Below are positions 3,770-62,704 of a stretch of DNA of 64,000 nt, one piece after another. Numbering within the stretch: position 1 is the stretch's first letter; the number at the start of each line of letters is the position of its first letter. The notes below the pieces were generated by a model. The model had not been told where the DNA came from. It saw only the letters and a program-made list of their open reading frames with translations, and made no database searches. The DNA lies in NCBI GenBank assembly GCA_963722255.1, contig CAVRJO010000001.1, forward strand, positions 841,775-905,774. The letters are read 5' to 3'. Made by a program: the position numbers and the translations under genes. The stretch comes from Candidatus Babeliales bacterium (GTDB lineage Bacteria > Babelota > Babeliae > Babelales > JANWKD01).

Positions 3770-3985
3770 ATGAATAAAATTATTTATAGTTTAGGCTTAT
3801 TGTTCTGTGTGTCAGCGCTTGAGTCTATGCAGCAAGATAAACCGATAAAAGTCTCAAATAATCCAAAAGATAATTCGGTAGTGCTTAATAAAGAAGGACA
3901 ATCGCAGAGAAAAATTAACACAGAATGTGTATGTTGTGGCAAGGACGTAGATCATGTGATGAAGCTCTATCAAGAAAATCGGTAG
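3770..3985 (+). CDS. Small secreted orphan protein
   Basis: AAGGAG RBS; signal peptide ending SALES-MQQ; CVCC near the C-terminus. Confidence 0.65.
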   Translation: MNKIIYSLGLLFCVSALESMQQDKPIKVSNNPKDNSVVLNKEGQSQRKINTECVCCGKDVDHVMKLYQENR

Positions 3986-3991
3986 TTTTGG

Positions 3992-4030
3992 AAGGGCGAT
4001 TAAATTACTACAAAGAAATCGCCCCTTTTA
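3992..4030. terminator. Bidirectional intrinsic terminator
   Basis: AAGGGCGATT...AATCGCCCCTTTT between convergent genes. Confidence 0.65.
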
Positions 4031-4044
4031 ATTTTTTAAGCCTC

Positions 4045-4578
4045 TTACTTGTTAAGCTTTATGAATTCTGAAGCCGCGGGCTCGTCACCTAGTTTTTTGA
4101 TAATATTTGCCACAAAGTTTACGAATTCTTGTTTTGTTTTAAAGCCTGCTGCAGAACGTAACGTGCCTCGAATATTGACTGGAATAAAACCAATTCCTTC
4201 AATATTGAATACAGATTCTTGGTTGCTGGTAAGAAAAATAACAAAATTTTTAAATATAAGATTTTTAGGGGACTGGTTAAGGCGTTTTATTATTTGTTCA
4301 GTTGTATTTTTATCGAAAGGGTAGAGAGGTCTATTAAAAATGTCATTTAAATATCCAGCTAAATCAACTAGTTTGCTACTAATGTTCTTTTCTATCTGAT
4401 ATTTGCCTTCATAAACATATGTTCCTACCTTCATATTTTTAATGTCATTAATGATCACCCCAATTTTAATTAATCTGTTTACAACAAGATTTTCAGGCGT
4501 TTCTTTTTGTCCTGCATTCACTGATGTTATAAGAAGCCCGCTTAGTATAAGGCGCATTAATTTTATAGAATTTTTCAT
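4045..4578 (-). CDS. Secreted hypothetical protein
   Basis: GGAG RBS before ATG at 4578; signal peptide ending SVNA. Confidence 0.65.
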   Translation of the reverse strand: MKNSIKLMRLILSGLLITSVNAGQKETPENLVVNRLIKIGVIINDIKNMKVGTYVYEGKYQIEKNISSKLVDLAGYLNDIFNRPLYPFDKNTTEQIIKRLNQSPKNLIFKNFVIFLTSNQESVFNIEGIGFIPVNIRGTLRSAAGFKTKQEFVNFVANIIKKLGDEPAASEFIKLNK

Positions 4579-4761
4579 GTTAAAATCTCCTGTTTTATCG
4601 ATTAAAATTAGTTTTTTTAAAAGTATATCTATATTTGAGTATAATAAATTATTATTCAAATATTCAATAATACAAACAATAACTCATTATAACTCTGGAA
4701 TTATCAAACTTAAAGATGGTACAATTTTTTGACTGGTTTAAAAGCACAAGGGAACTCTTTT

Positions 4762-5121
4762 ATGAATAAAATACAAGTAATGCTCTTATTAATGATGGTG
4801 TCTTTATCAAAATGTATGGAAAATGAATTTCGGGAAGGTAGTAGTTCTTCATCAAGCACAGAACGCACTCAAGAAGGTTATTTAAGTGAAATTTTGGGTA
4901 GCGACTTGGATACGTTGTCTTCTGATTCTCCGTTAACATCACCACGTGAATGTGATGAAAATCCGGTTGAAAAAACCGCTTTGTTTCCAAAAAAGATAAC
5001 CGATAAAAGCTCGCTTTCTGATCAAGATACCTCATGTATTTGTTGGTTATGTTGTTGCTTATTTTGTGCGACAAGAAAGAATGAGGGGGCGCAAGCGGTC
5101 TACAAGGCCATTGAGAAGTAA
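4762..5121 (+). CDS. Secreted Ser-rich protein with a C-terminal cysteine string
   Basis: Signal peptide then MEN; SSSSSS; SCICWLCCCLFC. Confidence 0.7.
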   Translation: MNKIQVMLLLMMVSLSKCMENEFREGSSSSSSTERTQEGYLSEILGSDLDTLSSDSPLTSPRECDENPVEKTALFPKKITDKSSLSDQDTSCICWLCCCLFCATRKNEGAQAVYKAIEK

Positions 5122-5211
5122 GTTTTATGAGCACCACGTTTTAACTCTTTAAAAAGATGCTATACTAAGTAAGTAAAAAATAATTAATTGTGCTTAGTGT
5201 AGAGAGCAACC

Positions 5212-6981: not shown

Positions 6982-6990
6982 TTTAATAAG

Positions 6991-7023
6991 AAAGAGACTT
7001 GTACTTTTTATACAGGTCTCTTT
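6991..7023. terminator. Bidirectional intrinsic terminator
   Basis: AAAGAGACTTGTA...TACAGGTCTCTTT between convergent genes. Confidence 0.7.
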
Positions 7024-7034: not shown

Positions 7035-7529
7035 TTATAAATTAGCCTTTTTACTTTGCTTGTTTTTGCTTGCTTTTATTTCGATAAATAGTTTGTAGTT
7101 AGGATTAGGCATTGTATCTTCCCATTTATGAAGTGAAGTTTTTTTTGCCAATGATGGATACATCGTATTGAGTATTTCTATTGCTTGCTTTGCATCATTA
7201 ATATTTTGAAAATAGAGTTTGCTTTTTTTAATAGTATCAAAAGAAAGCCCATGTTTGCCTAATTTCCTTATGAGCTCTTTTGCAATTTCATGAGTTTGTG
7301 TATCGGCAGTTTTAGTTAGAACGGGGAATTGTATAATTTCTATTGGTTTTTGTGTTTCAAAGAGTAGTTCATTTTTTACTCTAAAAAGCTCTTCTGCTTT
7401 TTCATATAGTTTTTCTGCAGTATTGATTATCGTATCTTCTATTTTTTTATACATGCCAAAGTTATTGCAATAAACAAAAAATATTAGGATCAATAAGATA
7501 TAGTTGTTAATTATTTTCATGAGTTTCAC
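7035..7529 (-). CDS. Secreted hypothetical protein
   Basis: Signal peptide ending NNFG-MYK; Lys-rich. Confidence 0.6.
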   Translation of the reverse strand: MKLMKIINNYILLILIFFVYCNNFGMYKKIEDTIINTAEKLYEKAEELFRVKNELLFETQKPIEIIQFPVLTKTADTQTHEIAKELIRKLGKHGLSFDTIKKSKLYFQNINDAKQAIEILNTMYPSLAKKTSLHKWEDTMPNPNYKLFIEIKASKNKQSKKANL

Positions 7530-11044: not shown

Positions 11045-12298
11045 GTGAAAATTACCAATGTAAAAGCACGTGAAATTTTTGATTCTCGAGGTATGCCAAC
11101 TCTTGAGTGCCAAATTTTTCTTGACCATGATCATTACGTTTTAGCATCAGTCCCTTCAGGAATGTCAAGGGGTATTCATGAAGCAGTGGAACTACGCGAT
11201 GGAGGATCACGATTATTTGGTAAAGGTGTTTTAAAAGCAAGTCAGATTATAGAAACGGTTTTTGCGCCGCAACTTATTGGCACATCTCCAGATCTTTTAG
11301 TTATCGATACTTTTATGATTGAGGCGGATGGAACGGTAAATAAAGCAAAGTATGGTGCAAATAGCATGCTTGCTGTAAGTATGGCTGTTGCAAAGGCACA
11401 AGCATTGAGTGAGCATATGGAGCTTTATGAATGTATAGCGCATCTTTATGGTGCACAAACGGTAATGCTCCCGTATCCGCTCTTTAATGTAATCAATGGT
11501 GGCATTCACGCAGATAATAATCTCTTTTTTCAAGAATTTATGATTTTGCCTATTGGTGGATCAAATTTTCGAGAGTCGCTTGAATTGGGGGCGCTATTTT
11601 TTTATGAACTAAAAGTCTTATTAAAAAAAACAAACAAACCAATTGTATATGGCGATGAAGGTGGAATTGCATCTTCATTTGAATCAGAATATGAAGCACT
11701 CGATATGATAACCGAGGTAATAGCGCGAATTGGCGATGGCAATCTATTTCGTATAGCTCTTGATGTTGCAGCATCCGAATTTTATAATGTTACAACGCAC
11801 TGTTATGATTTACATGATGAATTCTTAACATCAGAAGAACTAGTCGCTTTGTATGCTAAACTTATTCAAACATATCCAATTTTCTCAATTGAAGATGGAT
11901 TAGCGCAAGATGATTGGCAAGGATGGATGCATATGAAGAGCGTTTTGGGTGACACTATTCAGCTTGTTGGTGATGATCTTTTTGCGACTTCTGCTCAAAG
12001 AATTAAACATGGCGTTATGGTTGATGCCGCTAATGCTGTCATTATTAAACCCAATCAGGTGGGAACGATTACTGAAACATTGCAAACTATTCAATTTTGT
12101 TTCGAACAGGGTTTAAATACTATCATCTCACATCGATCCGGAGAAACAGAAGATACTTTTATTGCTGATTTAGCCGTAGGAACAAGTGCAGGTCAAATAA
12201 AAGCCGGTGGTCTTTCTCGTTCAGAGCGGCTTGCAAAATATAATCGTTTATTACGCATTGAAGATACGTTGTTATCAAGTATGTTGCTCGATGTTTAA
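11045..12298 (+). CDS. eno: Enolase
   Basis: REIFDSRG, EAVELRDG, NGGIH, QEFM, GDEGG, DVAASEF, SIEDG, GDDLF, KPNQ, SHRSGET, QIKAG. Confidence 0.96.
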   Translation: MKITNVKAREIFDSRGMPTLECQIFLDHDHYVLASVPSGMSRGIHEAVELRDGGSRLFGKGVLKASQIIETVFAPQLIGTSPDLLVIDTFMIEADGTVNKAKYGANSMLAVSMAVAKAQALSEHMELYECIAHLYGAQTVMLPYPLFNVINGGIHADNNLFFQEFMILPIGGSNFRESLELGALFFYELKVLLKKTNKPIVYGDEGGIASSFESEYEALDMITEVIARIGDGNLFRIALDVAASEFYNVTTHCYDLHDEFLTSEELVALYAKLIQTYPIFSIEDGLAQDDWQGWMHMKSVLGDTIQLVGDDLFATSAQRIKHGVMVDAANAVIIKPNQVGTITETLQTIQFCFEQGLNTIISHRSGETEDTFIADLAVGTSAGQIKAGGLSRSERLAKYNRLLRIEDTLLSSMLLDV

Positions 12299-14671
12299 GG
12301 GAGCTTCATGCTCTGATAAAGGATTTTCTTGTCCTCGTATCAAATCTTCAAGTTGCCGTATTTTATCACGTTCTTCGCTATGAATCTTGCCAGGGATTGG
12401 AACTTCAGGTCTTTCTGCAATATAGTCATCAATAACATCATGCGCAAAGTTAGGGTCAGGCTTGAAGAACCAACGTGTAATTGGATCACGTAAATCTTCA
12501 AAATTTGAAGACTCTTGAAGATTATTTTCAGCATAGCACAATTTGCTTTCTGTATAAGGATCATAACCACCACCCAGTCGAGGTTTAATGATTTTGGGAC
12601 AAATAAAAATCATTAAGTTTGTTTTTATTTTCACCTTGTTGCGACGCTTGAAGAACCAACCAAATAAAGGAATCTGACTCAAAAATGGTGTATCGTTTTC
12701 AATAGTTTGATCACTAATTTTAACCAGTCCTCCTAAAGCAAGCACCTCACCATCACCTACATTGGCATTAGTTTGCACCAATCGTGTTGCGCGATTGTTT
12801 GCGCTACTTAAAAATTCGTTGACGGTAATGTTGATTTGAAGATTAATATTTTTTGCACCTTCGCTGATGGTAGGTAAAATATCAATCGCAGTTGCAGCAG
12901 TAACATATTCATTTTTTACGGTAATGGATCCGCCATCACTATTTGCTCCACCAGGTAAAAAACGCTGTTGAGCAAGAGAAATTGTTGCTTGCTTGTTGTC
13001 CATAGTTGTAATAAACGGTTGTGTTAATATGGTAGTATTTGCGTACTTATCTAAAATTTGTAAAATATTCCAAATTCCGCTTCCATTTGGGTCATTAAAA
13101 GAAATTATTAGTGAACCAGGTGTTGATTGATTTGCAAAGTTGGCCGTACCATCTAGCTGCAAAAGATTTGCCATCAATGCATTTGCAGGAAATTGATTAA
13201 CAGTTTGACCAAGTTCATTGGTAATTCCAGCGGCTGTAATAATTGGGGTTGTAAGATTTGCCGTTTGAAAATTAATGTTATCTGAGACGCTTGTGTTAAA
13301 ACCACTTTTGTTACGCATTTGCGTTCCAACGATTTGGTTTTTTTGTGACGTAAGATCAACAACTAAAACTTCTATTGCTACCTGTGGTTGAGGCGTATCA
13401 AGTTCTTTTATTAATTTTTTTATACGTATCCAATCTTCTTTACGTGCAGCAACGAGCAAACGGTTGCCTCCTTGTTGTACGCCTTCTGATTGTGCTGCCT
13501 CCGGTTGTCCCTCTACAGCCGTAGGAGCAATTGTTGCAGCAATGCTTGTTTTTTCAGCTTCAACAATAACATCTTGAAAATATCTACGAGGGCCGGCAGA
13601 GACTTGCCCTTGTGATTGAGCTGTGGTGTCTTGTTTGTTAACTAATTGTTGCAATATGGGAGCAAACTCTTCTGCATTTAAATATTGTAGATCATATAAA
13701 TGTAGTATTGATTTTCCTGAATCAAGAGGATGATCGATATATTTTACAATGAATTCTTTAACAATATGAATAGACCGTGTTGTTCCCATAATTACAATGG
13801 TGTTTGTGCGATCTAGCGCAAGAACCTTGGTGTTCGGTGGAAAATAGGTGCTTGATTTTATGGGTGCTTCGCGTGCAACACCCGGAGTAACAGGTACTTG
13901 TGCTGTTGCAAGAAGCTTTTTGAATAGCTCTTCGATAAAAGTTGCTTGCACATGAAATAGAGGAATTACTTGAATATCGTCAGGAATCCCTTCAAGATCA
14001 AGTTGTCGAATTATCGTCATTGCAGCACGTATGATATTTGATTTATCAATAAGGATCAATGCATTTGTTTTAGCATCAGTTTTAATGACCGCAGTAGGTG
14101 AAAGCATTCCTGTTGGTGCTTTTAAAATTTGATCTAAAGGACTATTAGGATCGGTAACTTTTAAATTAGAAAGATAAAATACTGCTTGAATGACTTGTCC
14201 AGTTTCCGGCAAATCTTCTAAAGGAGGATTTATATAGAGTGGAAGTGGTTCACGTTGAATGTTTTGATCGATTTTTAAAAGAGTCAATTGATCATTTTTA
14301 AGTTCCCAACTATAACCAATAAAATCAAGAATTCTACCTAGTTCTTGCCATGCTTGATCGAGTGTAACTTTGTAGGGAAGTGAAAATTTAACTTTTGCTG
14401 AAAGCGCTTGGGACCCCTGAGGTAAAAGCACATTGACTTTCTTTTCTGCTGCGAGTTCATTAATGATGTCTATGAGAGCAACATCTTGATAGTTAAATGA
14501 ATATTTCTTTTCAAAACTTTTTGATTCAGGTTGCTCTTGAGTAACTGATTCTAAGGTAGGTTTTATATTGAGTTTTTCCTCAAGTAGTTGTTTTATTGAT
14601 TCTTCAGGTTGCGCATCAACCTTGACAAAGGTATTCAATAAAAGGAGCATTAAAACTATTTTTAAAACCAT
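12275..14671 (-). CDS. gspD: Type II secretion secretin, second copy
   Basis: N0/N3 repeats (YDLQYLNAEE), LDTPQPQVAIEVLVV, PFLSQIPLFGWFFK, NLMIFICPKII. Confidence 0.88.
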   Translation of the reverse strand: MVLKIVLMLLLLNTFVKVDAQPEESIKQLLEEKLNIKPTLESVTQEQPESKSFEKKYSFNYQDVALIDIINELAAEKKVNVLLPQGSQALSAKVKFSLPYKVTLDQAWQELGRILDFIGYSWELKNDQLTLLKIDQNIQREPLPLYINPPLEDLPETGQVIQAVFYLSNLKVTDPNSPLDQILKAPTGMLSPTAVIKTDAKTNALILIDKSNIIRAAMTIIRQLDLEGIPDDIQVIPLFHVQATFIEELFKKLLATAQVPVTPGVAREAPIKSSTYFPPNTKVLALDRTNTIVIMGTTRSIHIVKEFIVKYIDHPLDSGKSILHLYDLQYLNAEEFAPILQQLVNKQDTTAQSQGQVSAGPRRYFQDVIVEAEKTSIAATIAPTAVEGQPEAAQSEGVQQGGNRLLVAARKEDWIRIKKLIKELDTPQPQVAIEVLVVDLTSQKNQIVGTQMRNKSGFNTSVSDNINFQTANLTTPIITAAGITNELGQTVNQFPANALMANLLQLDGTANFANQSTPGSLIISFNDPNGSGIWNILQILDKYANTTILTQPFITTMDNKQATISLAQQRFLPGGANSDGGSITVKNEYVTAATAIDILPTISEGAKNINLQINITVNEFLSSANNRATRLVQTNANVGDGEVLALGGLVKISDQTIENDTPFLSQIPLFGWFFKRRNKVKIKTNLMIFICPKIIKPRLGGGYDPYTESKLCYAENNLQESSNFEDLRDPITRWFFKPDPNFAHDVIDDYIAERPEVPIPGKIHSEERDKIRQLEDLIRGQENPLSEHEAPLNIEQHT

Positions 14672-23919: not shown

Positions 23920-24044
23920 GACCACCCTCATAAACTTTTACTGATGTTTTAGTTTAGGCATAAAGGTGTTCAATAAGTCAATTGTTGTGAGTGTATTTAT
24001 AAAATTAAATAAAAACAAAGCTGTATATTTTTATCAATAAATTA

Positions 24045-24836
24045 TTATGATTTTTTTGTTAATCCTGACATTAGTTCAGTTCCCAAAAAAATCCAACCAA
24101 TTGTAGCAATACTGATTTTCACAGATTTTATAAAAGGAGAAGAACCAATAAAATCTTCTGAAGCCATTAAGCGCCATAACGTACCAATCCCAACTGCACC
24201 ATGAAATGTCGCTAACGCTAGAGATGTTTTTGGGTTTTTTTGCATGAATGCCTTTCGTTTAGGAGAAATGGCAGGTGTTTCTGCAGCTGTTTGCATTGTT
24301 TCATAAAGCCTTTCGGCATAGGCGCGTATTCCTGGAGTAAGTAACAGACTATTTAAAGCAATGCTGGGATATGCATATTCATCTTGCAAGAGATATTCGT
24401 TTTCTTCAAAATTATAATTCCAAACTGTGGCAGAGCCTTTGGAGTTTGCTTCTTCTTTTAAAAATACTTTGTTGATTAGTGAGGCAATGATTTCTTTATC
24501 TTTTTTATATTCTTGAATAATAAATTTTTTTACAGTTTCATGTTGAATGAATTGTTTTAAATTTATAATTTGTTGAGCATGTTCATCATTAATAAGATAT
24601 GTGGGAATACAACGAACAATAACTGTTTTCTTACCTTGATATTCTTCATAAAAACATACATTGTCAGCTAATGATTTTTGTGCTAAAACTTCACCCATTG
24701 CGTCATGGTCTCCAAAATGAGTTGTGAATTCTGTGCTTGGGTTTTGTTGTGATTCTTGCTGTTCCATTGAGTAGCAAAAATTAATTAATGATACTATTGT
24801 TAAAAAAAACAGTGATTTTAAATTAATTTTTTTCAT
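24045..24836 (-). CDS. Secreted orphan with C-terminal hydrophobic hairpin
   Basis: Signal peptide then MEQ; two hydrophobic segments at the C-terminus. Confidence 0.7.
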   Translation of the reverse strand: MKKINLKSLFFLTIVSLINFCYSMEQQESQQNPSTEFTTHFGDHDAMGEVLAQKSLADNVCFYEEYQGKKTVIVRCIPTYLINDEHAQQIINLKQFIQHETVKKFIIQEYKKDKEIIASLINKVFLKEEANSKGSATVWNYNFEENEYLLQDEYAYPSIALNSLLLTPGIRAYAERLYETMQTAAETPAISPKRKAFMQKNPKTSLALATFHGAVGIGTLWRLMASEDFIGSSPFIKSVKISIATIGWIFLGTELMSGLTKKS

Positions 24837-24839
24837 TTT

Positions 24840-25577
24840 TTACTTGCTCAAAATTAAATCGGTATTATCCAAATGATCTCTTATCTCTGTTGCCCATATA
24901 ATTGCTATTTTAACATCTTCAATTTTATTGTTTTTTCTATTGGTTATGCAAGAAGGCAGGTGTTTTTCGATTCTTTCTTTTGTAAAAAAACCTGAAAGAA
25001 TAGTAGATAATCCAAAAATAGTTCCAGCTCCAACTAATTTGAAATCAGTTTCATAGCTGTTAAAACCGAATTTAAAAAAGTAATAACTCGAAATGCCAAG
25101 GATGGTAGTAATGCCTCCGCAAAAAAGTGAATCTATCGCTATTTTTTTAAAAGATTTATTATGTGGGAAATTTGCTTGTTCCCGCAAATAGTTTTGGTAT
25201 TGCCGTAATCCTTCAAGTTCAATTTCAGAATTTTCTTGAATATGCTTTTTTTGTCGTATGAAATTATAAGTATCGTTAATTTTTACCAATTTTGTTAAAA
25301 ATCGCGCTCGTGTTCTGAAATCAACTAATTCTTCATGAGATTTATTTTCATTATTATCTACAGAGCTTGTTGAAGGAGTTAGTAGAAATTGTATCCAAAA
25401 ATAATCAAATAAACAATCAAGAAAGCTTTTATCATTTTTTTGAGTAAGCCCTTTTGCTATTCCTTTTCCTAATTCCTTTCTAAACCCTTTACGAAAATCG
25501 TCCATACCTTTTATAGTGATGCATGAGAGGGATAGTGCAAGGATAATAAAAAAATACTGTATACTTTTGTTTTTCAT
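24840..25577 (-). CDS. Secreted orphan with bilobed hydrophobic segment
   Basis: Signal peptide then MDD; paired TM segments. Confidence 0.7.
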   Translation of the reverse strand: MKNKSIQYFFIILALSLSCITIKGMDDFRKGFRKELGKGIAKGLTQKNDKSFLDCLFDYFWIQFLLTPSTSSVDNNENKSHEELVDFRTRARFLTKLVKINDTYNFIRQKKHIQENSEIELEGLRQYQNYLREQANFPHNKSFKKIAIDSLFCGGITTILGISSYYFFKFGFNSYETDFKLVGAGTIFGLSTILSGFFTKERIEKHLPSCITNRKNNKIEDVKIAIIWATEIRDHLDNTDLILSK

Positions 25578-27394: not shown

Positions 27395-28192
27395 CTATGC
27401 CTTATTCAAGAGATATGATAATACTGATTGTTTGAACGAAGCTGGGATAAATAATCCCGCAGTTAGCCCCACTAATCCAGTTGCGAGCATGCATGTGCCT
27501 GAATAGTTTTTAAAAAAGCTGCTTTTTTTGTTTAGGTGCTCTGCAGGTATACGTTCCTCGGGTTTTGTTGCTATTGAGGTTGGCTGCAATATTTCAATTT
27601 TAGATTGTAGTAATTTTGCTTGGGATTGCCGAAATTGTTCTTCAATTTTACGGTTTTTTTTGATCAATCTCTCTCTTGTAGCTCGTATATTATCAAGATC
27701 TTTTTGTAGTATTTTATATTCCTCATTTAATATACTTATATCAACTCTTAAGGCTTCTCGTTCTTCCTGTAAATCTTCTTCCGAAAAATCTATGATAGGC
27801 TCAGGAGCTCGTTGATTACTTTGAATATTTAAATGACGCCTAAGGCTTGCTATTTTTCGTATCTTTCTTTCTAATCTATCGCTTTTTGGTTTTTGTAGCG
27901 CATTTATAAACTCTCCAACTTCGATTCCTGTAGTAAATGTTGTTAGCGGTATTGCTTTGAGTTTTTTAAAAATTTCTCCAAGAGTCGGTAACGATATAAA
28001 ATTGGTCGCTTCGTGTGAATTTGAAAAATGAGAAATGTCAGGACGATATGCTGCCGCAGAAATACAGTGTAAGCCATCTCCTGGTTTGGCTTCGTATATT
28101 TTAGACTTTTTGTTCATGGTTTTTGTAACATGAATAGAGCCTAAGCCAATTAGAAATAATAGAAGATTTGAAAAAATTAAAGACTTTTTCAT
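27395..28192 (-). CDS. Secreted coiled-coil protein with C-terminal TM
   Basis: Signal peptide then MNK; coiled coil; TM; ends SYLLNKA. Confidence 0.72.
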   Translation of the reverse strand: MKKSLIFSNLLLFLIGLGSIHVTKTMNKKSKIYEAKPGDGLHCISAAAYRPDISHFSNSHEATNFISLPTLGEIFKKLKAIPLTTFTTGIEVGEFINALQKPKSDRLERKIRKIASLRRHLNIQSNQRAPEPIIDFSEEDLQEEREALRVDISILNEEYKILQKDLDNIRATRERLIKKNRKIEEQFRQSQAKLLQSKIEILQPTSIATKPEERIPAEHLNKKSSFFKNYSGTCMLATGLVGLTAGLFIPASFKQSVLSYLLNKA

Positions 28193-28288: not shown

Positions 28289-29020
28289 TTAAGCTTTAGT
28301 AAGTAGATATGAGAAAATCGTCTGTTTTACTATAGGTAATGCTAATCCTGTAGCCAAGCCAATAGCTGCAGTAACTAGTGGTATGGAATAGGTGGAAAGA
28401 GGACTCAAATGCTTTTGTGGTATTTGTTGTGTTGTGTTTGGCATCTTTGTACAATTTCTTCTTACTTGTTCAAGATCATTAGGCACATTGGCTGTTCGTG
28501 CTTTTTTAGGATAGGATGGCTTCTTTTTTTCTTTCAAAATAGCCTTGATCGTATTTGTTTTTTCGGCTTTTCTTCCAATTTCTTCCTTTAATTTTCTATT
28601 TTTTGCGATTAGGTTGTTATTTCTTCTTATTAATCTTCTTCTGGTTTCAAGCAGTTTGTCGCGCTCCTCTTTAATTGGTGTTAAAAGAATATTGAAAAAG
28701 TTTTCGAGACAAAGCCTTGAACTATTTCTATTAAAGGCAATCGAAGAAACTGCATTGTTAACTACTTCACTAGTCAAACCAAATTTGTGAATATCGCCAT
28801 AATTTATTGTAAGCATTGTATTGGTATTAAGGCTACCAGCTAAAGTTCGAGCAAGTGCTGTAAAAATTCTTAAATGCTCTTCTTTTTTTTGATATTTTGA
28901 TTTTATTTTAAATGTCAGTTCTTGAACATAATGAGCGACTTCAATTTCCATAGTCATAGATAGCATTGGTATCAAGTTAAGAATTGCCAACAAAGATAAA
29001 GATTTTGCCATTTTTTTCAT
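28289..29020 (-). CDS. Secreted coiled-coil protein with C-terminal TM, paralog of 27395-28192
   Basis: TRRRLIRRN vs TRERLIKKN; ends KQTIFSYLLTKA vs KQSVLSYLLNKA. Confidence 0.72.
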   Translation of the reverse strand: MKKMAKSLSLLAILNLIPMLSMTMEIEVAHYVQELTFKIKSKYQKKEEHLRIFTALARTLAGSLNTNTMLTINYGDIHKFGLTSEVVNNAVSSIAFNRNSSRLCLENFFNILLTPIKEERDKLLETRRRLIRRNNNLIAKNRKLKEEIGRKAEKTNTIKAILKEKKKPSYPKKARTANVPNDLEQVRRNCTKMPNTTQQIPQKHLSPLSTYSIPLVTAAIGLATGLALPIVKQTIFSYLLTKA

Positions 29021-29095: not shown

Positions 29096-29473
29096 TTATT
29101 CCCAAGGTGTAACATTCTTTTGAAGGGGAATGATTAAATCATATGTGGAAAGATCATATAAATTTTGTCCTTGAAGAAAGTAGTCTCCTTTAATGCGATA
29201 ATCATACCCATGCCCATTTATAATCAAGAGTGGTAAATTATCTTGAGTAAAAACCTGAAGAATATTTCCCTTTTGTGAGGATATTATTTTAAAGTCATTT
29301 CCATCATATTTTTCATCAAAATTATAATATATCCGACCACCTGTCATGCATATGCCGTTGCCAATGTTAAGACAAAAAATCGGTTTTTGCATACAAAAAA
29401 TTTGAGAGGTGCAAGAGGCAAAGATGAATGCTAAGATTAAACAGATTATTTGTTTGTTTTTTATAGTGTTCAT
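29096..29473 (-). CDS. Secreted hypothetical protein
   Basis: Signal peptide ending QIFC-MQK. Confidence 0.6.
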   Translation of the reverse strand: MNTIKNKQIICLILAFIFASCTSQIFCMQKPIFCLNIGNGICMTGGRIYYNFDEKYDGNDFKIISSQKGNILQVFTQDNLPLLIINGHGYDYRIKGDYFLQGQNLYDLSTYDLIIPLQKNVTPWE

Positions 29474-33550: not shown

Positions 33551-33886
33551 ATGAAGTGGCTTATTATTTTTATTATGGGGATCAGTCTTTTTTGGCAGAT
33601 TAAATTGTTGCCCATGGAAAGCAAAGTGGTTGAGAACGGAGATTCTGAGGCAGAGAGATTTAAACAAATAAAAATAAGAAAACTATCGGGTTTCGATGCC
33701 CTTCGTGATTATAAACCAACATCTCCTCGAACAGCGGCATTCTTTAGCCCTAATTCTCCAAGGGCAGAAGGAAAAGCTTGTTGTTTATGGGATGATTCAT
33801 GTAACTGTTTTTTTTATTACTGTTTGTGCATGCCCCTTTGTTATATGTGTTGTCAAAGTGGGAATGATTCATATAACTCGATGTAA
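33551..33886 (+). CDS. Secreted protein with a C-terminal cysteine string
   Basis: Signal peptide then MES; CCLWDDSCNCFFYYCLCMPLCYMCC. Confidence 0.7.
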   Translation: MKWLIIFIMGISLFWQIKLLPMESKVVENGDSEAERFKQIKIRKLSGFDALRDYKPTSPRTAAFFSPNSPRAEGKACCLWDDSCNCFFYYCLCMPLCYMCCQSGNDSYNSM

Positions 33887-35258: not shown

Positions 35259-36665
35259 TCAAGAATTCAATTTGTTTATTGCTTCAATCTTTTTATTAAT
35301 TTTTTCAACTAATTGAGCAGTAGTATGTAATGGTAATAATTGTAAAAGCGAACAATCTTTGAGATCTTCTAAAGCTTTTTTGTCAGTTTTTGAATGAGCA
35401 AATGCTATTGAGGCAAGTATACAAGGCAGAGTTGGGGACAGTTCATTTTCATAGGGAATACCTTGCTCGCATTTTTGCTTAAAAGTTCCGATTGTTTGAT
35501 TTAATGCTAATGAATAATAATATATTTTGGTCTTTAATATACCCTGTCCTGGAAATTTTTTACTTGGTTTGGCATGAGTGAACTGAACTATGGAATCTTC
35601 TAAAGACTCTAGTTTTTTATTATACAAGTTATACGCGGGTTGTTCGATTTTTTGGAAATTTTTATCAATATTAGAAAGCTCAATTGTTTTAACAATTTGC
35701 CATTTCTTTTCATTGTTATAAACATGGATTGTGATAGTGTTATTTGCATGATTTAAGACTGCAATAGTTTTTGCATCTAAGGAAGGTTTTAGATTTGCTT
35801 TTGCAGTATCTATTTTGCTGATTGATGTTATGTCAAATTTGTTATCGTTGTTGCAAAAAAAGTATTCATCCTCAGTTGTAACAATGAAATTATGAGTATC
35901 AAGGATCAAAACTGTTCTTATGGGTTTATCAAATGTATATTCAATACTAGATTGTTGAAGAGTGGTGGAAATTATTGTTAAATACTTGCCACTTGAAAAG
36001 AGACAGATATTTTCATCTAAAAAATTTATTGTTTTCAAGGAAGAATCAGGATCAGTTTTAAAGCTAATTGATGAGTGTTCGCTCCACACATCACTCTTAT
36101 TTTGGAAAATCTGCATTACGCTATTTTTGCACGCAACAGCTAAATAGTTTTGTTTAGGAGAAAATTTAGTTTCGAAGATATGACCTACAGTGGTAAATGA
36201 TGAGATTCCAACACTAGGGTGATATGGAGCTGCAATACATAATAAGGGTGTAAGGGCAGAAAACAGAGAAATCACAGCGAATTTTGTGTGACTCTCAGCT
36301 AGTGGACTTGGCTTTTTTCTATACTCAACTTTCCATCCTTGTGAATGACAAAGGTAAAAAAGATGTTGTGCAATAAAAGGCTTTAAGTCTTCTGTGCATG
36401 GTTCTAGGAGTTTGTTCAATTGATCACGTTTTTCATTAAGGTTGTATCCATTGATAGTTGCATATAGGGGTAACAAACTTTTAGCAAATTGTCTTCTTGC
36501 AATATCACATAATGATGCTGTTCCGTACCCATTGGTACAAGAATTATAATTTAAATTATAACTTTCTTGAGCTGATTCATCGATGCCGGTTTGTTTCATA
36601 GGGAGGATTGTTGAATTGATAAATAATGTGCAAAAGAGTGAAGAGAGCAGCAAGCTGTTTTTCAT
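35259..36665 (-). CDS. Secreted protein with probable beta-propeller (WD40-like) region
   Basis: Signal peptide then MKQ; FSPKQNYLAVA and SLDAKTIAV blade-like segments. Confidence 0.55.
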   Translation of the reverse strand: MKNSLLLSSLFCTLFINSTILPMKQTGIDESAQESYNLNYNSCTNGYGTASLCDIARRQFAKSLLPLYATINGYNLNEKRDQLNKLLEPCTEDLKPFIAQHLFYLCHSQGWKVEYRKKPSPLAESHTKFAVISLFSALTPLLCIAAPYHPSVGISSFTTVGHIFETKFSPKQNYLAVACKNSVMQIFQNKSDVWSEHSSISFKTDPDSSLKTINFLDENICLFSSGKYLTIISTTLQQSSIEYTFDKPIRTVLILDTHNFIVTTEDEYFFCNNDNKFDITSISKIDTAKANLKPSLDAKTIAVLNHANNTITIHVYNNEKKWQIVKTIELSNIDKNFQKIEQPAYNLYNKKLESLEDSIVQFTHAKPSKKFPGQGILKTKIYYYSLALNQTIGTFKQKCEQGIPYENELSPTLPCILASIAFAHSKTDKKALEDLKDCSLLQLLPLHTTAQLVEKINKKIEAINKLNS

Positions 36666-46231: not shown

Positions 46232-47767
46232 ATGAAAAAAACTCTAGTAGTGCTTTTTGGGATACAAATTGTTTGTTCAAGCTTTGCAATGGAAGAAGAA
46301 AAATCCAAACGCCCTCGAGCTAAGATTTCAGAAACAGCTATCCAAGAAGTTATGGATAGAGGAACCAGACGTGAGCTTCAAGAGGTTCCAGAAGGCCAGA
46401 ATAATGGCCATTATTCTTTTGTTTATGAGGATATTGAAAATGCTATTCGTGATCAAGCAAGCCAACCGAAACCACAAGAAAAAGAATATGCCGATGAAAA
46501 AGAACGTATGTTTGATAAACTTTGTAAAGCTGCTCATGACTGCGATGCTCAAGGTGTTGGTGAATTAATCGAAAAAGGAGCGCCTGTAGAATATAATGAA
46601 AATTCGGCTCTTTTTTCTGTTATTAAAGGCTTCCAGGGAAGATCCTACTGCATTGTTGAGTTGAATGGCAATAAAGAAGGTGGAATACAAGAACATGCAA
46701 AGAAGGCAAAAACGACTCTTTTAACACTCATTGAAGCTGGTGCCGATGTAAATAAAAAAAATAAAGAATGCGAAACGCCTCTTATGCGTGCAGCGTTTTA
46801 TGCGCTCAAGGGTTTGGTTAAACTGTTACTCAAGGCAAAAGCAGATAAGGAGATGGTAAACAAAGAAATTGGGGGCTCTGCATGGTACTACGCAGATGAA
46901 GTTTCAGAAGGGTACCCTCTTAAGTTTTATGCAGCAACCATGGATCCTTATTATCAAATAGCGTTTAGTTATCCGGAATATAAGCTGTATCGGCAAAAGT
47001 GTATTGACCTTTTAAGACCTACTGAAAATTCTCCACTTTTTGAGCAGTATTGCGCTCGCCAAAAGGTGCTAGAGAAACGTGAAAAACTTGAGCAGCTGTG
47101 CAATGCGACAAATAAGTTAGATATAAATGCTGTTAAACAAATACTTGAAACAGGGGTTTCTCTTACTGAAGGTGAGCAGTCTTCATTTTATTATCCTCTT
47201 ACTATGACACTGTGGTTAGCAGTAAATGGTTTTATTCAATCTGTGAGCGAGGTTCGCATAGATAAAAGCATAAAAAAAGAAGCTATTGTTAAAACCATTG
47301 CTGAGTTACGTGAGCGTACAAAAATCATAATAGAACAGTTAGTTAAAAATGGATTCGATATCAATGCAAAGAATTTTGATGGCCAAACAGCATTTATGCT
47401 AGCATTAAGTAGTGCAAACAAGCCTCTTGTAAAGAAATTTTTAGAGCTAAATGCGCGCACTGATATAAAAGATAATGATGGTTATACTGCATCAGACTAT
47501 GCACAACTAGATTCTGCAGTGGTTAAAATTAATTTAAAAAAGAAAAGAATGTTTCACAGATTTGTAGAAAATTATTGTCACGCTCATATGGGTGACCAAG
47601 TTACTGAAGAAATAAACTATTTTGCTCCTGAGGATAGTGGCCAAGATGCAGAAACGACAGCTTTATGGGGTGTAGAGGTAAACTATTCTATAAAGAATAT
47701 GATTTATTATAAAAAAAGGTTAGAGAAAGTTCATTCTCTTTTAACTAAGAAAGCTCAATTGGAATAA
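46232..47767 (+). CDS. Secreted ankyrin-repeat protein
   Basis: Signal peptide then MEE; GADVNKKNKECETPLMRAA; GFDINAKNFDGQTAFMLA; DNDGYTASDYA. Confidence 0.85.
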   Translation: MKKTLVVLFGIQIVCSSFAMEEEKSKRPRAKISETAIQEVMDRGTRRELQEVPEGQNNGHYSFVYEDIENAIRDQASQPKPQEKEYADEKERMFDKLCKAAHDCDAQGVGELIEKGAPVEYNENSALFSVIKGFQGRSYCIVELNGNKEGGIQEHAKKAKTTLLTLIEAGADVNKKNKECETPLMRAAFYALKGLVKLLLKAKADKEMVNKEIGGSAWYYADEVSEGYPLKFYAATMDPYYQIAFSYPEYKLYRQKCIDLLRPTENSPLFEQYCARQKVLEKREKLEQLCNATNKLDINAVKQILETGVSLTEGEQSSFYYPLTMTLWLAVNGFIQSVSEVRIDKSIKKEAIVKTIAELRERTKIIIEQLVKNGFDINAKNFDGQTAFMLALSSANKPLVKKFLELNARTDIKDNDGYTASDYAQLDSAVVKINLKKKRMFHRFVENYCHAHMGDQVTEEINYFAPEDSGQDAETTALWGVEVNYSIKNMIYYKKRLEKVHSLLTKKAQLE

Positions 47768-47903: not shown

Positions 47904-48130
47904 ATGTTTAAACTATTTTTATTGCTGATTTTGTGTGTAAGTTTATCGAGTTATTGTATGAACGATGATAAAAAATTAGACCCAGATTATCACCTTTGAA
48001 ATCGGGTAAAGCTGATAGTTCAAAAACAGATAAAATAAAAATCACTTTTGGATGGAGAATGGTTGATTTAGGCAATTCAGGACATATTTTGCAACGTCTT
48101 TATACTTCAAAAACAGTGAATGAAAGATGA
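47904..48130 (+). pseudogene. Frameshifted small secreted protein
   Basis: MFKLFLLLILCVSLSSYC-MND stops at 47999; another frame continues LSPLKSGK...TVNER. Confidence 0.45.
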
Positions 48131-48749: not shown

Positions 48750-49378
48750 ATGGGTATACAAAAGGGAATATTATTTGTTTTTTTCACCGGATTTGTTTTT
48801 ACTATGTTTGCAATGAATGTAGAAGAAGATGAGGCTGCTTTGGCAAAAAGACAGAAATTGTTTGAGAATTTGTATGCTGCAGCACGCTCATGTTCTTCAT
48901 CTTTGGTTTTTAAATTTCTCTTACAAAGCAATGAGCAGGTACTTTTTAACCATTGCGGAAATACTCCCTTGCATGAAGTTTCAATAGGGCTTTTTGAAAA
49001 AACATGTAACGTTATGAACGGAATAGTTGAAGATGCTGAATTACAAGTGGGTATTCCTATCGAGAAGCAAAGATATCCCTTTCATATTTCCTTTTAAGGG
49101 GCTATGATGTCAATGTTAAAAACTTTTTTGGTTTGACTCCGCTTATGCTGGTTGCTGCTTTTGGACAAAAAGGTTTAATGAGAAGATTATTAAATGCTGG
49201 TGCAAATACCGATCTTATCGATGAAGCAGGTTATAAAGCATATGACTTAGCGCATGAAGGGGATGGTATGATAGAAAAATTTAATGCCAACCTTGCATGT
49301 TATACTTATAGTGAAATGTACCAAAATAATAAAAAAAAATGTATTAAACTTTTAACTGAAGCTGTTGGGTCAGATTAA
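48750..49378 (+). pseudogene. Secreted ankyrin protein split by a frameshift near 49070
   Basis: Signal peptide then MNV; GNTPLH; the other frame gives GYDVNVKNFFGLTPLMLVA...GANTDLID. Confidence 0.7.
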
Positions 49379-57602: not shown

Positions 57603-58049
57603 TCTGTTTTTAATTCTGGTATAAAGACCTACAACTTTATATTCGCCATTTTGGTTTTCTTGAATAGTTGAGAAGGTATTATGTAACGTTTTACCAAGTA
57701 AAGCTGTTGATAATGTTCCAAAAAAGATCAAAGCAGGAATTTTACAGAAATATAAGAGAGAGCCTTTTTTTGCTTCTTCTAAAAATAAACCATAGGTAAT
57801 CGTTGAAGAAAAAAATCCAAAAATTCCGTAAAATAGAGCCCCTTCTTTTTTTCCATTCATTTCTATTTCTGCAAGCGCTTGAGCATGTTTACGATTTTGA
57901 TTAGTTGCTAGTTGCTGTCTATAGCCAATTTCTTCTTTTATGCAAGCTAACTCTGCGGGGGTTCCATCTACATCATTATTCATTCCTTGCAATAGATTGT
58001 ACCAAGATATAAGAGCTAATAAGCCTGCTAAAATAGTTATTTTTTTCAT
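57594..58049 (-). CDS. Secreted protein with two-TM hairpin
   Basis: Signal peptide then MNN; bilobed hydrophobic region. Confidence 0.68.
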   Translation of the reverse strand: MKKITILAGLLALISWYNLLQGMNNDVDGTPAELACIKEEIGYRQQLATNQNRKHAQALAEIEMNGKKEGALFYGIFGFFSSTITYGLFLEEAKKGSLLYFCKIPALIFFGTLSTALLGKTLHNTFSTIQENQNGEYKVVGLYTRIKNRLF

Positions 58050-59691: not shown

Positions 59692-59711
59692 ATTTAAAGC
59701 AGCGTAAGGAA

Positions 59712-60593
59712 ATGGTTGAGTGTGTAAATGAAGCAATAGACTTTAAAAGAAAATGTGAACTTTTAGATGTATCGAGAGGATCGATGTATTACAAGCCTAA
59801 ACCTCAAAAAAATAATGATGCAATTATTATGAATGAGCTACGTGAAATTTATCAAGAAACGCCTTCCTATGGCTATCGGCGCATGACAGTAGCTTTAAGA
59901 GAAAATGGTTTTTTGGTTAATCATAAAAAAGTTTTTATGTTGCTTAAGATAGCGGGCATCCAGGCCATTTACCCTCGCAAAAAAACAACCATACGAAATC
60001 AGGGGCACAAAGTATTTCCTTATTTATTGCGTGGGTTGCTTATTAATCGACCAAATCAGGTTTGGCAAGTAGATATAACCTATATAAAAATACGGGGTGG
60101 TTTTGTATATTTGGTTTGCTTAATTGATGTTTTTAGTCGAAAAATCATGGGATGGAAATTGTCAATTTCTCTTGATACAGCGTTATGCATAGAGGCGTTC
60201 AATAGTGCTTTGCAACATGGTATTCCAGAAATTGTTAATAGCGACCAAGGATGTCAATTTACCAGTGCTCTGTGGGTTGAATTAGTGCAACAATATGGAA
60301 TTCAAATAAGTATGGATGGTAAAGGAAGATGGGCAGATAATGTTTATATTGAGAGGCTTTGGCGTACGATAAAATATGAGATGATACATTTGCATAGCTT
60401 TGATACAGTTCAACAGGTAAGAGATGCGCTTGCAAGTTACATTGTTTTTTATAATACACGACGTTATCATTCAAAGCTTAATTATCACGCACCAGACTCT
60501 ATTTTCGCAAAAAAAATTATTCCATCTAAAAAAGAATTATTCGAAAGTTTTATAGCTTCACAAATTTATAAACTTGGAGCCGCTATGATTTAA
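59712..60593 (+). CDS. IS3 transposase OrfB (DDE)
   Basis: YGYRRM, WQVDITYI, NSDQGCQFTS, DNVYIERLWRTIKYE. Confidence 0.93.
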   Translation: MVECVNEAIDFKRKCELLDVSRGSMYYKPKPQKNNDAIIMNELREIYQETPSYGYRRMTVALRENGFLVNHKKVFMLLKIAGIQAIYPRKKTTIRNQGHKVFPYLLRGLLINRPNQVWQVDITYIKIRGGFVYLVCLIDVFSRKIMGWKLSISLDTALCIEAFNSALQHGIPEIVNSDQGCQFTSALWVELVQQYGIQISMDGKGRWADNVYIERLWRTIKYEMIHLHSFDTVQQVRDALASYIVFYNTRRYHSKLNYHAPDSIFAKKIIPSKKELFESFIASQIYKLGAAMI

Positions 60594-60698
60594 ATTTTTT
60601 TTTAATTTCGTGTCTTGACAAAGGGGTTCACTATAGATTGCATCGTCTAATTGGATCTTATTCTTAAATATTTAGTCATTTATCATAGTAAAGATTTG

Positions 60699-60728
60699 TT
60701 GCATTTTTATACGTATGCGTATTATACT
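60699..60728 (+). promoter_or_regulatory. Sigma70 promoter with palindromic operator
   Basis: TTGCAT (60699) - 18 nt - TATACT (60723); near-palindrome ATACGTATGCGTAT at 60709-60722 in the spacer, upstream of the EVE-MarR operon. Confidence 0.55.
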
Positions 60729-60781
60729 TATACATACAATTAGATTTTTTTGAATAAATGCAAGAATAAAAAAGGAGAACA

Positions 60782-61210
60782 ATGACAAAATATTGGATCG
60801 GTGTCGCAAGTAACGAGCATGTGCAAAAAGGAAAAGCTGAGGGCATTATGCAGGTATGTCATGGCAAGCAAGCACCTTTAAAAAGAATGCAACCAAGAGA
60901 TTGGATTATCTATTATTCGCCTACTGAAGTTTTTGGCGAAAAAATACCATGTCGAAAATTTACAGCGATCGGTTGCGTTCAAGATAAGGAGCCGTATCAG
61001 TTTAAAATGGCTGATGATTTTATTCCGTGGCGTCGTGATGTAAAATTTGTAGCATCGAGCGATGCTTTAATAGAACCATTACTCAATCAGCTTTCTTTTA
61101 TTAAAAATAAAACGCATTGGGGAATGGTTTTTAGGTATGGATTATTTGAAATTCCTGAGTCAGATTTTTTATTGATTGCAAAAGCAATGGGAGCAAATTG
61201 TGGCAGATAA
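60782..61210 (+). CDS. EVE-domain protein
   Basis: YWIGVAS..HV..G...QVCHGK..PL.RM..DWIIYYSP; FTAIG; FRYGLFEI. Confidence 0.88.
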   Translation: MTKYWIGVASNEHVQKGKAEGIMQVCHGKQAPLKRMQPRDWIIYYSPTEVFGEKIPCRKFTAIGCVQDKEPYQFKMADDFIPWRRDVKFVASSDALIEPLLNQLSFIKNKTHWGMVFRYGLFEIPESDFLLIAKAMGANCGR

Positions 61211-61670
61211 AGAACTTGATTTTGAAAAAGTAAGTTTATACAAAACTCCTGAAGAAAGCCCCGGCTATTTATTGTGGAAAGTCAGTTTAAAATGGCGTGC
61301 TCTTATTGAAGAAGTCTTAAAGCCATTAGGTCTTACGCATCCACAGTTTGTTGTTTTGGCAACAACGGGTTGGTTAACACGAAACAATAATCTGGTTTCT
61401 CAAATAGATATTTGTAGAGCTTCCGGTTTTGATCCTAATACATTATCACAGATTTTGCGTGGACTGGAGGCCAAAGAGTTACTTAAGCGTGTGCGTTCAT
61501 TAAATGAGCGCAGCAAAAGTCCGCAACTCACAATTCTTGGAAGTGAACTATTGAACAAGGCATTACCTACAGTTGAACAAGCAGATACACGATTTTTTGA
61601 TCTGTTGAATACGTTAGAATTGGCTCAATCAATTGCAATTTTTAATACATTATTAATGGGAAGAGAATAA
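61200..61670 (+). CDS. MarR-family transcriptional regulator
   Basis: SPGYLLW, L.PLGLTHPQFVVLA, SQILRGLE.K.L..R; GTG start overlapping the EVE gene end. Confidence 0.88.
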   Translation: MADKELDFEKVSLYKTPEESPGYLLWKVSLKWRALIEEVLKPLGLTHPQFVVLATTGWLTRNNNLVSQIDICRASGFDPNTLSQILRGLEAKELLKRVRSLNERSKSPQLTILGSELLNKALPTVEQADTRFFDLLNTLELAQSIAIFNTLLMGRE

Positions 61671-61813
61671 AGAGTAAAAGTTTTTTGCAGTAGTTGCCGC
61701 AATTGACGATTCAAACCACGTGAGATACAATTTTGGTTTTTTTTAAACTAAATTGTGCTATTCTGTGTCATGACATTAAAAAATTACTTATAGCTGGCAA
61801 AAAGGAAACTATT

Positions 61814-62257
61814 ATGAAAAAATTCTCATTGTATTGTATTATTTTTGGCGTGTATACAGCTGTCTCTATGGAGCGAGATGGTTCTTCTGCGCATTATGGT
61901 GGTTATCCCGATGAAGAGTTTAGACAATTGGTGGGCAATTTTTTTTATTATAGCAAAGAAGGTGTAACAGAGAACAAAATAGATCCTACAGAAGCAGAGA
62001 GAAAAATAGCTCATATAGTTAACAAAGTGCGGCAGCCAAAACAAATGGAACAAATAATTATACCGCATAATATAAATACACAAGAAAACAGTTGGTGTGA
62101 CGTACCTGGATGTACTGCGAAGATTACCTTATATATTCATTCGGTGGCACATAAAGCATGGCATGAACGTACTAGGTATTTTCGATGTGAAGATTGTCAA
62201 TTAGCGTTTAAACGTATAAGAGAATATGATATTCATATGAAAACCCACAATGCATAA
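61814..62257 (+). CDS. Secreted protein with two C2H2 zinc fingers
   Basis: Signal peptide then MER; CDVPGC-X12-HKAWH and FRCEDCQLAF-X8-HMKTH. Confidence 0.8.
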   Translation: MKKFSLYCIIFGVYTAVSMERDGSSAHYGGYPDEEFRQLVGNFFYYSKEGVTENKIDPTEAERKIAHIVNKVRQPKQMEQIIIPHNINTQENSWCDVPGCTAKITLYIHSVAHKAWHERTRYFRCEDCQLAFKRIREYDIHMKTHNA

Positions 62258-62287
62258 GCGAGAAGTCAAATAATTGAGGAAAAAACA

Positions 62288-62704
62288 ATGATAAAGAATC
62301 TCTTATTGTGTTATGTTGTTTTTAACGTGTGTACTGCATTGCCTATGGAGCAAGGTAAAGGTTGTACGCCGGATGTAATTAATCATTTAATGGTTAGATT
62401 TTTTAACTTTCAAAATGATCCTAGATTTTTACAATATTGCCAGAAAAATCCTACTGCTGGGCATGAAATACCCATATCACCTTCAGTAGAAAAAGGAGTG
62501 GCTGCAAGCTGGTTTAAAGATAAAAGAAGAGTCTTATGGTGCCTTAGATGCAAAGATGGTATGCAGAAATTTCGTAACAATCAAATGGATGCCCATGATG
62601 CATGGCATGATAAAACAAGGCCACATAGATGCGAACCTTGTAGGCTTGCTTTTTCTACTATGCAAACCTATGAATCTCATGGAATTTCAACATCTATAGA
62701 ATGA
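62288..62704 (+). CDS. Secreted C2H2 zinc-finger protein, paralog of 61814-62257
   Basis: Signal peptide then MEQ; CLRC..HDAWH, linker DKTRPH, RCEPCRLAF..YESH. Confidence 0.75.
   Translation: MIKNLLLCYVVFNVCTALPMEQGKGCTPDVINHLMVRFFNFQNDPRFLQYCQKNPTAGHEIPISPSVEKGVAASWFKDKRRVLWCLRCKDGMQKFRNNQMDAHDAWHDKTRPHRCEPCRLAFSTMQTYESHGISTSIE

Follow-up and report, generated by a model that had tools for sequence, protein, structure and literature searches.

At canonical signal peptides the residue directly after the cut (+1) is normally unconstrained save for Pro, and Met is rare there. E. coli lipoproteins follow a +2 rule, diatom complex-plastid proteins reportedly obey a +1 Phe rule (ASAFAP motif), and the PEXEL motif of Plasmodium (RxLxE/Q/D) is said to be cut by plasmepsin V, exposing an xE/Q/D N-terminus that is needed for export into the host. 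In Bacteroidetes, a Q-rule is described in the available portion of one study, by which signal peptidase I substrates carry Gln at +1 that is cyclised to pyroglutamate (PMC5837995). We analyzed a stretch of 64,000 nucleotides (the window; contig CAVRJO010000001.1 of assembly GCA_963722255.1, positions 841,775 to 905,774, Candidatus Babeliales bacterium) in which the leaders of 18 mostly unrelated predicted proteins are followed directly by Met and, in most cases, by Glu, Asp, Asn or Gln, a pattern that we term the Met rule. The source genome (G000; 1.62 Mb in two contigs, 34% G+C) is that of a member of the Dependentiae, widespread and almost uncultured parasites of protists. A 32-base segment of its 16S rRNA is conserved in five relatives and recurs in 96 public records; a search with its AspRS gave no close record, and its SHMT matched distant phyla alone.

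The motif is a genuine and selected feature of the proteins at the predicted signal peptidase I site, biased towards certain protein classes and restricted to certain lineages. In G000 it spans ~237 unrelated protein families and is inherited within families, and its carriers are mainly ankyrin, WD40 and orphan proteins, not envelope housekeeping proteins. Based on a crude call of 1643 non-overlapping open reading frames (ORFs) in G000, a signal heuristic (Lys or Arg among residues 2-8, and a window of 10 uncharged residues whose Kyte-Doolittle mean is at least 1.9) retained 677 ORFs as signal-like (41%, a count that depends on how the set was built), close to the 44% given for a cultured member of the Dependentiae in the accessible part of its genome report (PMC6561590). 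Met shows a peak at one position past the hydrophobic window, where it is found in 74 of the 677 (10.9%, versus 1.7% in mature regions). The strict motif, [AGSCT]-M-[EDNQ] just past the hydrophobic core, is present in 200 of the signal-like ORFs, whereas 500 shuffles of each 13-residue region gave 26.8 on average and 45 at most, and when this 13-residue window was moved 40, 80 and 120 residues downstream the counts were 6/657, 4/607 and 6/510. It was also found at residues 16-35 of 42 of the 966 "non-signal" ORFs, many of which clearly have signals that the heuristic missed. In an unbiased count of dipeptides in 400 kb of the other contig, held out as a test region, Met-Glu ranked first (35 observed vs 1.2 expected). 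When 306 G000 proteins with a post-core Met were aligned on this residue (the Met-aligned set), position -1 was A, S, G, T or C in 248 (81%), position -3 mostly L, S, I, V, A or T, and position -2 often F or Y. Position +2 was Glu in 121 proteins (6.3 times the background) and E, N, Q or D in 198, Asn and Gln being enriched about 2-fold and Asp not at all (0.87-fold). No Gln peak at +1 was seen in the positional profile of G000; some non-Met envelope proteins start with Gln (VDA|Q, NFA|Q).

The anatomy of these leaders predicts cleavage just before the Met, which would give a Met-Glu or Met-Asp N-terminus. The position of the cut was assessed with the (-3,-1) rule, which is satisfied in 223 of the 306 proteins (73%) when the cut is placed right before Met and in 0-29% at shifts of -5 to +5, in agreement with the site proposed in the original prediction. 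The signals have a median length of 22 residues up to the Met, which itself lies at median residue 22-23, and an uncharged run of median 17 residues, c-region included, as is typical of cleaved signals. Two genes of the S26 family (PF10502, type I signal peptidase) were found in G000, both above the cut-off (C2:137986-138699, minus strand, and C2:701964-702665, plus strand; the S26 loci of the relatives are L285 and L309-L322). A lipoprotein signal, cut by signal peptidase II, was considered and discarded, as +1 is Met, there is no lipobox Cys and -2 is mostly Phe or Tyr; the Met sites nonetheless recall a lipobox in having Leu at -3 and a small -1 residue. A different targeting route was also discarded, given that core hydrophobicity, n-region charge and length of the uncharged run are the same in motif and non-motif signals. 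A site matrix trained on the set itself proved too permissive (336 of 371 non-Met proteins passed) and was therefore left unused. Among the public matches listed for the genome there was no RNA run, and one soil DNA run shared few words with it.

All 18 post-leader Met strings of the original prediction were found in the window at the coordinates and on the strands given there, and its count of 16 sites with Met-E/D/N/Q is correct. The leaders are the following:

3770..3832, plus strand: leader and Met-Gln (..ALES|MQ), 71-residue ORF, AAGGAG upstream of the first ATG
4762..4821, plus strand: leader and Met-Glu (..LSKC|ME), 119-residue orphan, no Pfam match
7449..7529, minus strand: leader and Met-Tyr (..NNFG|MY), GTG start, 164 residues, no Pfam match, not of the E/D/N/Q class
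24762..24836, minus strand: leader and Met-Glu (..FCYS|ME), 263-residue orphan, full-length form on public record
25500..25577, minus strand: leader and Met-Asp (..TIKG|MD), 245-residue orphan, full-length form on public record
28112..28192, minus strand: leader and Met-Asn (..VTKT|MN), 265-residue orphan
28946..29020, minus strand: leader and Met-Glu (..LSMT|ME), 243-residue orphan
29387..29473, minus strand: leader and Met-Gln (..QIFC|MQ), 125-residue Cys-rich orphan
33551..33619, plus strand: leader and Met-Glu (..KLLP|ME), 111 residues, Pro at -1
36594..36665, minus strand: leader and Met-Lys (..TILP|MK), 468 residues, Pro at -1, weak beta-propeller match
46232..46294, plus strand: leader and Met-Glu (..SSFA|ME), 511-residue ankyrin-repeat protein, Ank_2 E 5.6e-13
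47904..47963, plus strand: leader and Met-Asn (..SSYC|MN), on a 31-residue ORF, probably a gene remnant
48750..48818, plus strand: leader and Met-Asn (..TMFA|MN), 115 residues
53360..53422, plus strand: leader and Met-Glu (..AMCA|ME), 490-residue WD40 protein, WD40 E 8.6e-8
57978..58049, minus strand: leader and Met-Asn (..LLQG|MN), 151 residues
58385..58450, minus strand: leader and Met-Asn (..QLYG|MN), TTG start, 132 residues, AAGGAG upstream
61814..61873, plus strand: leader and Met-Glu (..TAVS|ME), 147 residues, weak C2H2 match under the Pfam cut-off
62288..62350, plus strand: leader and Met-Glu (..TALP|ME), 138 residues, Pro at -1

In all 18 a Lys/Asn-rich n-region precedes the hydrophobic core, and the Met occupies a position between residues 19 and 28; residue -1 is small in 15 of them and Pro in the other three. 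Their start codons (16 ATG, one GTG and one TTG) mostly follow a purine-rich ribosome-binding motif. In the heuristic set, the strict motif is present in 13 of the 29 signal-peptide-like ORFs of the window, versus 8 of 388 in Dependentiae genomes without the rule (binomial P ~6e-15). A Pfam scan of 17 Met-type window proteins left 13 without a match, the others being an ankyrin protein, a WD40 protein and two weak matches, to a beta-propeller and to C2H2. When homologues of the 18 proteins were sought in syntenic DNA of the same genus, only the secretin was matched, and one ankyrin weakly; the window proteins being nearly devoid of detectable homologues, conservation was judged from homologues genome-wide. 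The short ORF at 47904-47999 (plus strand) has the leader and Met-Asn-Asp, is closed by a stop after its 31st codon, and resembles what is left of a Met-type gene.

Ank_2 is matched by 33 ORFs of the genome. The heuristic assigns a signal to 28 of them, of which 19 carry the strict motif, versus 181 of the 649 remaining signal-like ORFs (odds ratio 5.5, P = 2e-5). Five further ankyrin proteins have, as judged by eye, a +1 Met that is either followed by some other residue at +2 or preceded by a signal that the heuristic had not recognised. In the held-out 400 kb, a Pfam scan gave matches for 17 of the 74 Met-type proteins and none for the remaining 57. These matches comprise eight ankyrin and three WD40/beta-propeller proteins and one each of TPR, GH1, SAM_HAT, a weak synaptobrevin, M48 and EamA, the last two being membrane proteins and thus false calls. 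Among the 86 other signal-like proteins of the same region 32 had a match, including BamA, Skp, peptidases of families S41, M23, S8 and S9, SecD, FKBP and two GH1, along with some cytosolic false positives; three were ankyrin proteins, one of which is a Met-type protein missed by the search window. Ordinary Ala|X sites without the motif are found in BamA, Skp, the periplasmic proteases and the first secretin, and SecD of the held-out region lacks the motif as well. Several envelope proteins of the window had been named as devoid of the Met, and they do lack it: the beta proteins at 9.3-10.5 kb read NFA|Q, IEA|Q and VDA|G, the secretin at 14671 VDA|Q, and the USP at 23931 IKT|Q. The second secretin (19685) reads LPT|MNN, a Met that is probably due to chance because it is absent from the orthologues in G001 and G003. 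The 617-residue product of the gene at window 22078-23931 (minus strand) is a eukaryote-type enzyme, a ubiquitin C-terminal hydrolase (UCH, E 3e-31); its signal is an ordinary one, ..ISIKT|QPP, outside the rule. Housekeeping envelope proteins have a +1 Met less often, and the motif is absent from the Geobacter (0/30) and Clostridium (0/21) controls. Since the cut is predicted just before the Met, and Met is rarer in the housekeeping and control sets, neither of the two outcomes that the original prediction had named as refuting it (a cut elsewhere, or a +1 Met just as frequent in such sets) was observed.

The same script was run on 40-200 kb from each of 15 relatives, so that 12 families were sampled, and on two outgroups. 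The counts of strict motifs among signal-like ORFs are given below, together with those of the held-out region:

G000 (held-out 400 kb), family f1: 48 of 165
G001, family f1: 15 of 71
G004, family f1: 8 of 27
G003, family f1: 9 of 44
G014, family f11: 11 of 38
G020, family f17: 34 of 107
G022, family f19: 12 of 81
G062, family f3: 6 of 38
G057, family f6: 3 of 100
G058, family f12: 2 of 69
G016, family f13: 0 of 61
G010, family f7: 1 of 36
G027, family f4: 0 of 37
G008, family f5: 1 of 36
G005, family f2: 1 of 42
G040 (40 kb only), family f19: 0 of 7
Geobacter, outgroup: 0 of 30
Clostridium, outgroup: 0 of 21

The original prediction had called for a repeat across related genomes, and the rule does recur in five of the 12 sampled families of Dependentiae; it is near zero in the other seven and absent from both outgroups. 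With this distribution, the rule is not due to A+T content or to a parasitic lifestyle. In families f17 and f19 the +2 partner is Asp, not Glu (in G020, Met-Asp was observed 21 times vs 0.5 expected). In a tree of S26 proteins, all rule-bearing genomes fall into one well-supported clade, where two rule-less genomes are also found in an unresolved polytomy, and a second clade (f4, f7, f12) has no rule-bearing genome; one origin of the rule followed by losses, or a few gains, both fit. Inheritance was tested by comparing mature regions only, using best hits. When the query was a strict-motif protein, the best hit also had the strict motif in 20 of 31 cases in rule genomes and in 0 of 17 in rule-less genomes, versus 7 of 99 and 0 of 77 when the query was a non-motif protein. 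This concordance holds at family level and not as strict orthology, since most pairs consist of ankyrin paralogues. The secretin accounts for three of the 11 rule-genome misses, and in several of the others the residue after Met is His. The leaders of homologous ankyrin proteins in rule-less genomes end in ordinary sites. In the rule-less G057 (loci L233-L242), homologues of Met-type ankyrins have leaders ending in a lipobox-like ..A-V-S-C|S-[EQ]-Q, which suggests that another N-terminal mark, perhaps lipidation, may be set on the same class of proteins in that family.

The window (33-37% G+C) has many short genes without Pfam match, housekeeping genes for AspRS, enolase, SHMT and TGT, and a type II or type IV-pilus-like block consisting of two secretins, PilM, a GspC-like gene and a MoxR ATPase. 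The two secretins (window 12275-14671 and 16875-19700, both on the minus strand, ~800 and 940 residues) have PilM and the GspC-like gene between and beside them. The original prediction had suggested that the Met may mark proteins for this neighbouring secretion system, a link that is not supported, as the tandem double secretin is present in 15 of 15 Dependentiae genomes tested, including seven without the rule. A third, shorter secretin (457-618 residues) is found in five of the seven rule-less genomes. According to the accessible part of the report on Babela, the one cultured member of the Dependentiae examined for it, type II was the only secretion system found (PMC4378268).

Among candidate partners, a dedicated signal peptidase paralogue was rejected: S26 copies number two in seven of the eight rule genomes and one in G014, and 1, 1, 1, 1, 2, 2 and 2 in the rule-less ones, G058, G010 and G005 having two copies without the rule. 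The tree shows the S26 duplications to be recent and lineage-specific, and there is therefore no dedicated paralogue. The residue three past the catalytic Ser is Thr (once Lys) in 15 of 15 S26 sequences of rule genomes, and Pro, Ser, Val or Asp in rule-less genomes and Geobacter; this column is confounded by descent and may serve as a lead. The S26 proteins of the clade comprising f4, f7 and f12 have Ala in place of Met beside the catalytic Ser, and N-terminal extensions bringing them to ~400 residues. An extra methionine aminopeptidase (MetAP) or other M24 peptidase was rejected too, two being found in nearly every genome, with the rule or without. The plant-type glutaminyl cyclase PF05096 was found in 0 of 15 genomes, the mammalian-type cyclase family not having been searched for. 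As a separate observation, the MetAP gene of G000 looks broken (C2:230993-231685, minus strand; L194:10993-11685; outside the window): the Pfam match crosses 16 stops with pieces in at least four frames, and the DNA is 73% identical to the intact gene of G001, with 26 gap openings. A second MetAP copy was not found in G000, and 14 of 14 relatives have an intact gene of ~260 residues. Either the G000 gene is a pseudogene or the assembly is faulty at this place. The Met rule is also present in relatives with an intact MetAP gene. The second M24 peptidase of G000 (Xaa-Pro type, C2:253056-253670, minus strand) has one in-frame TAG within its Pfam match.

Two alternatives had been raised along with the original prediction, namely that translation restarts internally or that an ancestral start codon had a signal cassette grafted onto it. 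In their favor, the residue is Met, and one of five genes checked does have a public gene model beginning at the inner Met. Both possibilities are hardly credible in the light of the start regions and of the leaders. A Shine-Dalgarno-like motif (at least four bases of AGGAGG) lies ahead of the first start in 49% of Met-type genes and in 28% of 644 non-exported genes, but ahead of only 1.0% of the inner Mets, versus 4.6% of 6404 control internal Mets, by which a restart is rejected. Position 2 of the 644 non-exported proteins is Lys in 17%, Asn in 13% and Glu in 6%, versus Glu in 40% after the post-signal Met (Glu follows internal Mets in less than 5.3%), which argues against an ancestral start. 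Nor is a cassette apparent, as leader DNA is alike in just 28 of 46,665 pairs; composition and leader comparison thus dispose of this alternative. By blastp, the mature regions of the 306 proteins group into 237 clusters, of which 206 have a single member, the +2 Glu codons (GAA 95 : GAG 26) equal the genome ratio, and the Met is retained in homologues across families. The gene with two public models (window 35259-36665, minus strand) is recorded as a 468-residue form with the signal and as a 446-residue form starting at the post-signal Met (NCBI/ENA sources), and the other four genes checked are on public record in full form alone. A model begun at the inner Met, as in this one of five, loses the signal peptide. 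We also consider very unlikely an uncleaved signal anchor, in which the hydrophobic stretch would stay in the membrane and Met-Glu would mark its end. The three window sites with Pro at -1 would suit it, and cleavage here is a prediction from sequence; yet a small -1 residue in 81% and agreement with the (-3,-1) rule in 73%, in this register only, speak for a cut, as do the length of the uncharged run and the position of the Met, both typical of cleaved signals.

We therefore favor, with reasonable though far from full confidence, ordinary Sec-type signal peptides with a lineage-specific extended site, [L/I/S]-[F/Y/x]-[A/S/G] | Met-Glu, replaced by Met-Asp after the cut in some sister families. 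Cleavage by signal peptidase I would leave a new N-terminus beginning with Met-Glu. Its most likely role comes after the cut, as a tag that identifies host-directed proteins, either so that they are sorted onward from the periplasm or so that the new N-terminus is stable. The single peptidase of G014 (11/38 strict) must also cut housekeeping Ala|X sites, so that Met-Glu is not needed for cleavage and the motif probably acts afterwards, as a sorting or stability tag. Several points weigh against this reading. No gene was found to co-vary with the rule among S26 copy number, secretins, M24 peptidases and plant-type glutaminyl cyclase; rule-less families export ankyrins on ordinary signals, so that the tag is not needed for export generally; and the class bias could partly reflect gene age. 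The Pro at -1 of 33551, 36665 and 62288, found in 13 of the 306 Met-aligned sites, is atypical for signal peptidase I, the heuristic also takes membrane anchors and some cytosolic N-termini and misses ~25-30 true cases, and ankyrin paralogues from 40-200 kb per relative dominate the inheritance comparison. An extension of the favored reading, by analogy, would make Met-Glu/Asp an effector tag exposed through proteolysis by signal peptidase I, a bacterial counterpart of PEXEL or of the diatom +1 Phe rule, that routes ~200-230 proteins (12-14% of genes) from the periplasm hostward or fits them to the host's N-terminal machinery; this we put forward tentatively, as a possibility that falls short of even chances. 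It is rather unlikely that Met-Glu/Asp/Asn/Gln mimics a NatB-type end, to be acetylated in the host cytosol or to escape the Arg/N-degron pathway. The +2 residues would agree with it (198/306, and 16/18 in the window, a sequence criterion that assumes a cut before Met), as would the enrichment of eukaryote-type repeat proteins among the carriers; MetAP spares a Met that precedes E/D/N/Q, and such a Met protects an acidic residue that would be destabilising at the N-terminus. However, Ala, Ser, Gly and Thr at +1 are equally stabilising and are the usual products of signal peptidase, NatB acts mainly on nascent chains at the ribosome, +2 Asp is not enriched in G000, and sister families deliver homologous ankyrin proteins without Met. 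The use of Glu and not Asp in G000, and of Met-Asp in two other families, fits any need for an acidic +2 residue as well as it fits NatB mimicry. A preference of the enzyme, or frozen accident, has a similarly small chance in our view: the signal peptidase I of this clade would have drifted to Met at P1', with young genes of fast turnover following and no downstream role. The confinement of the rule to one clade of the S26 tree and the Thr column near the catalytic Ser point that way, and the Bacteroidetes Q-rule is likewise no generic sorting signal in the available portion of its description (PMC5837995). Against it, housekeeping envelope proteins keep Ala|X sites that the same enzyme must cut in G014, the strong +2 Glu/Asp preference and the class bias are left unexplained, and the S26 column follows phylogeny, with G016 having Ser there and no rule. 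The present data are compatible with a sorting role, a host-side role (NatB, N-degron) and a mere enzyme optimum alike.

No description of a Met rule after signal peptides was found in the literature searched, supplements not covered; the accessible parts of the reports on Chromulinavorax (PMC6561590) and Babela (PMC4378268) describe many signal-bearing ankyrin proteins and do not mention the +1 residue. A mark separating ankyrin and eukaryote-like proteins from envelope proteins would give a direct predictor of effectors, and, were it an effector tag, the effector repertoire of uncultured parasites could be read straight from sequence. As the rule is limited to some families, comparative genomics could find its reader, and an exchange of the Met or the Glu, tracking location and stability, would be a clean experimental test of the mark.

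Compared with known systems, the leaders share with the canonical Sec/signal peptidase I signal a positive n-region, a hydrophobic core, small residues at -1 and -3 and the presence of S26 genes, but differ in the Met at +1 (0/51 in the Geobacter and Clostridium controls). The diatom +1 Phe rule and the E. coli +2 rule are alike in that subsequent sorting depends on a residue at the cut or beside it, an analogy only, the former concerning eukaryotic plastid import and the latter Lol sorting of lipoproteins. The likeness to PEXEL is one of outline: an intracellular parasite, proteolysis after ER/Sec entry that exposes an acidic or amide second residue, and hundreds of host-directed proteins; organism, protease and motif differ, there being no RxL here and no Arg at -3 (L/S/I/V/A/T). 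The Bacteroidetes Q-rule is similar in being a phylum-restricted conserved residue right after the signal peptidase I cut of unrelated exported proteins, as far as the available portion of that study describes it (PMC5837995). It differs in that Gln marks most substrates, whereas here Met followed by Glu/Asp marks ~30% of signals with a bias to host-directed or orphan proteins, in only five of 12 sampled families; as to cyclases, the plant-type family PF05096 was the one searched for. The Met rule would be the second case, after the Q-rule, of a post-cut residue under lineage-wide selection.

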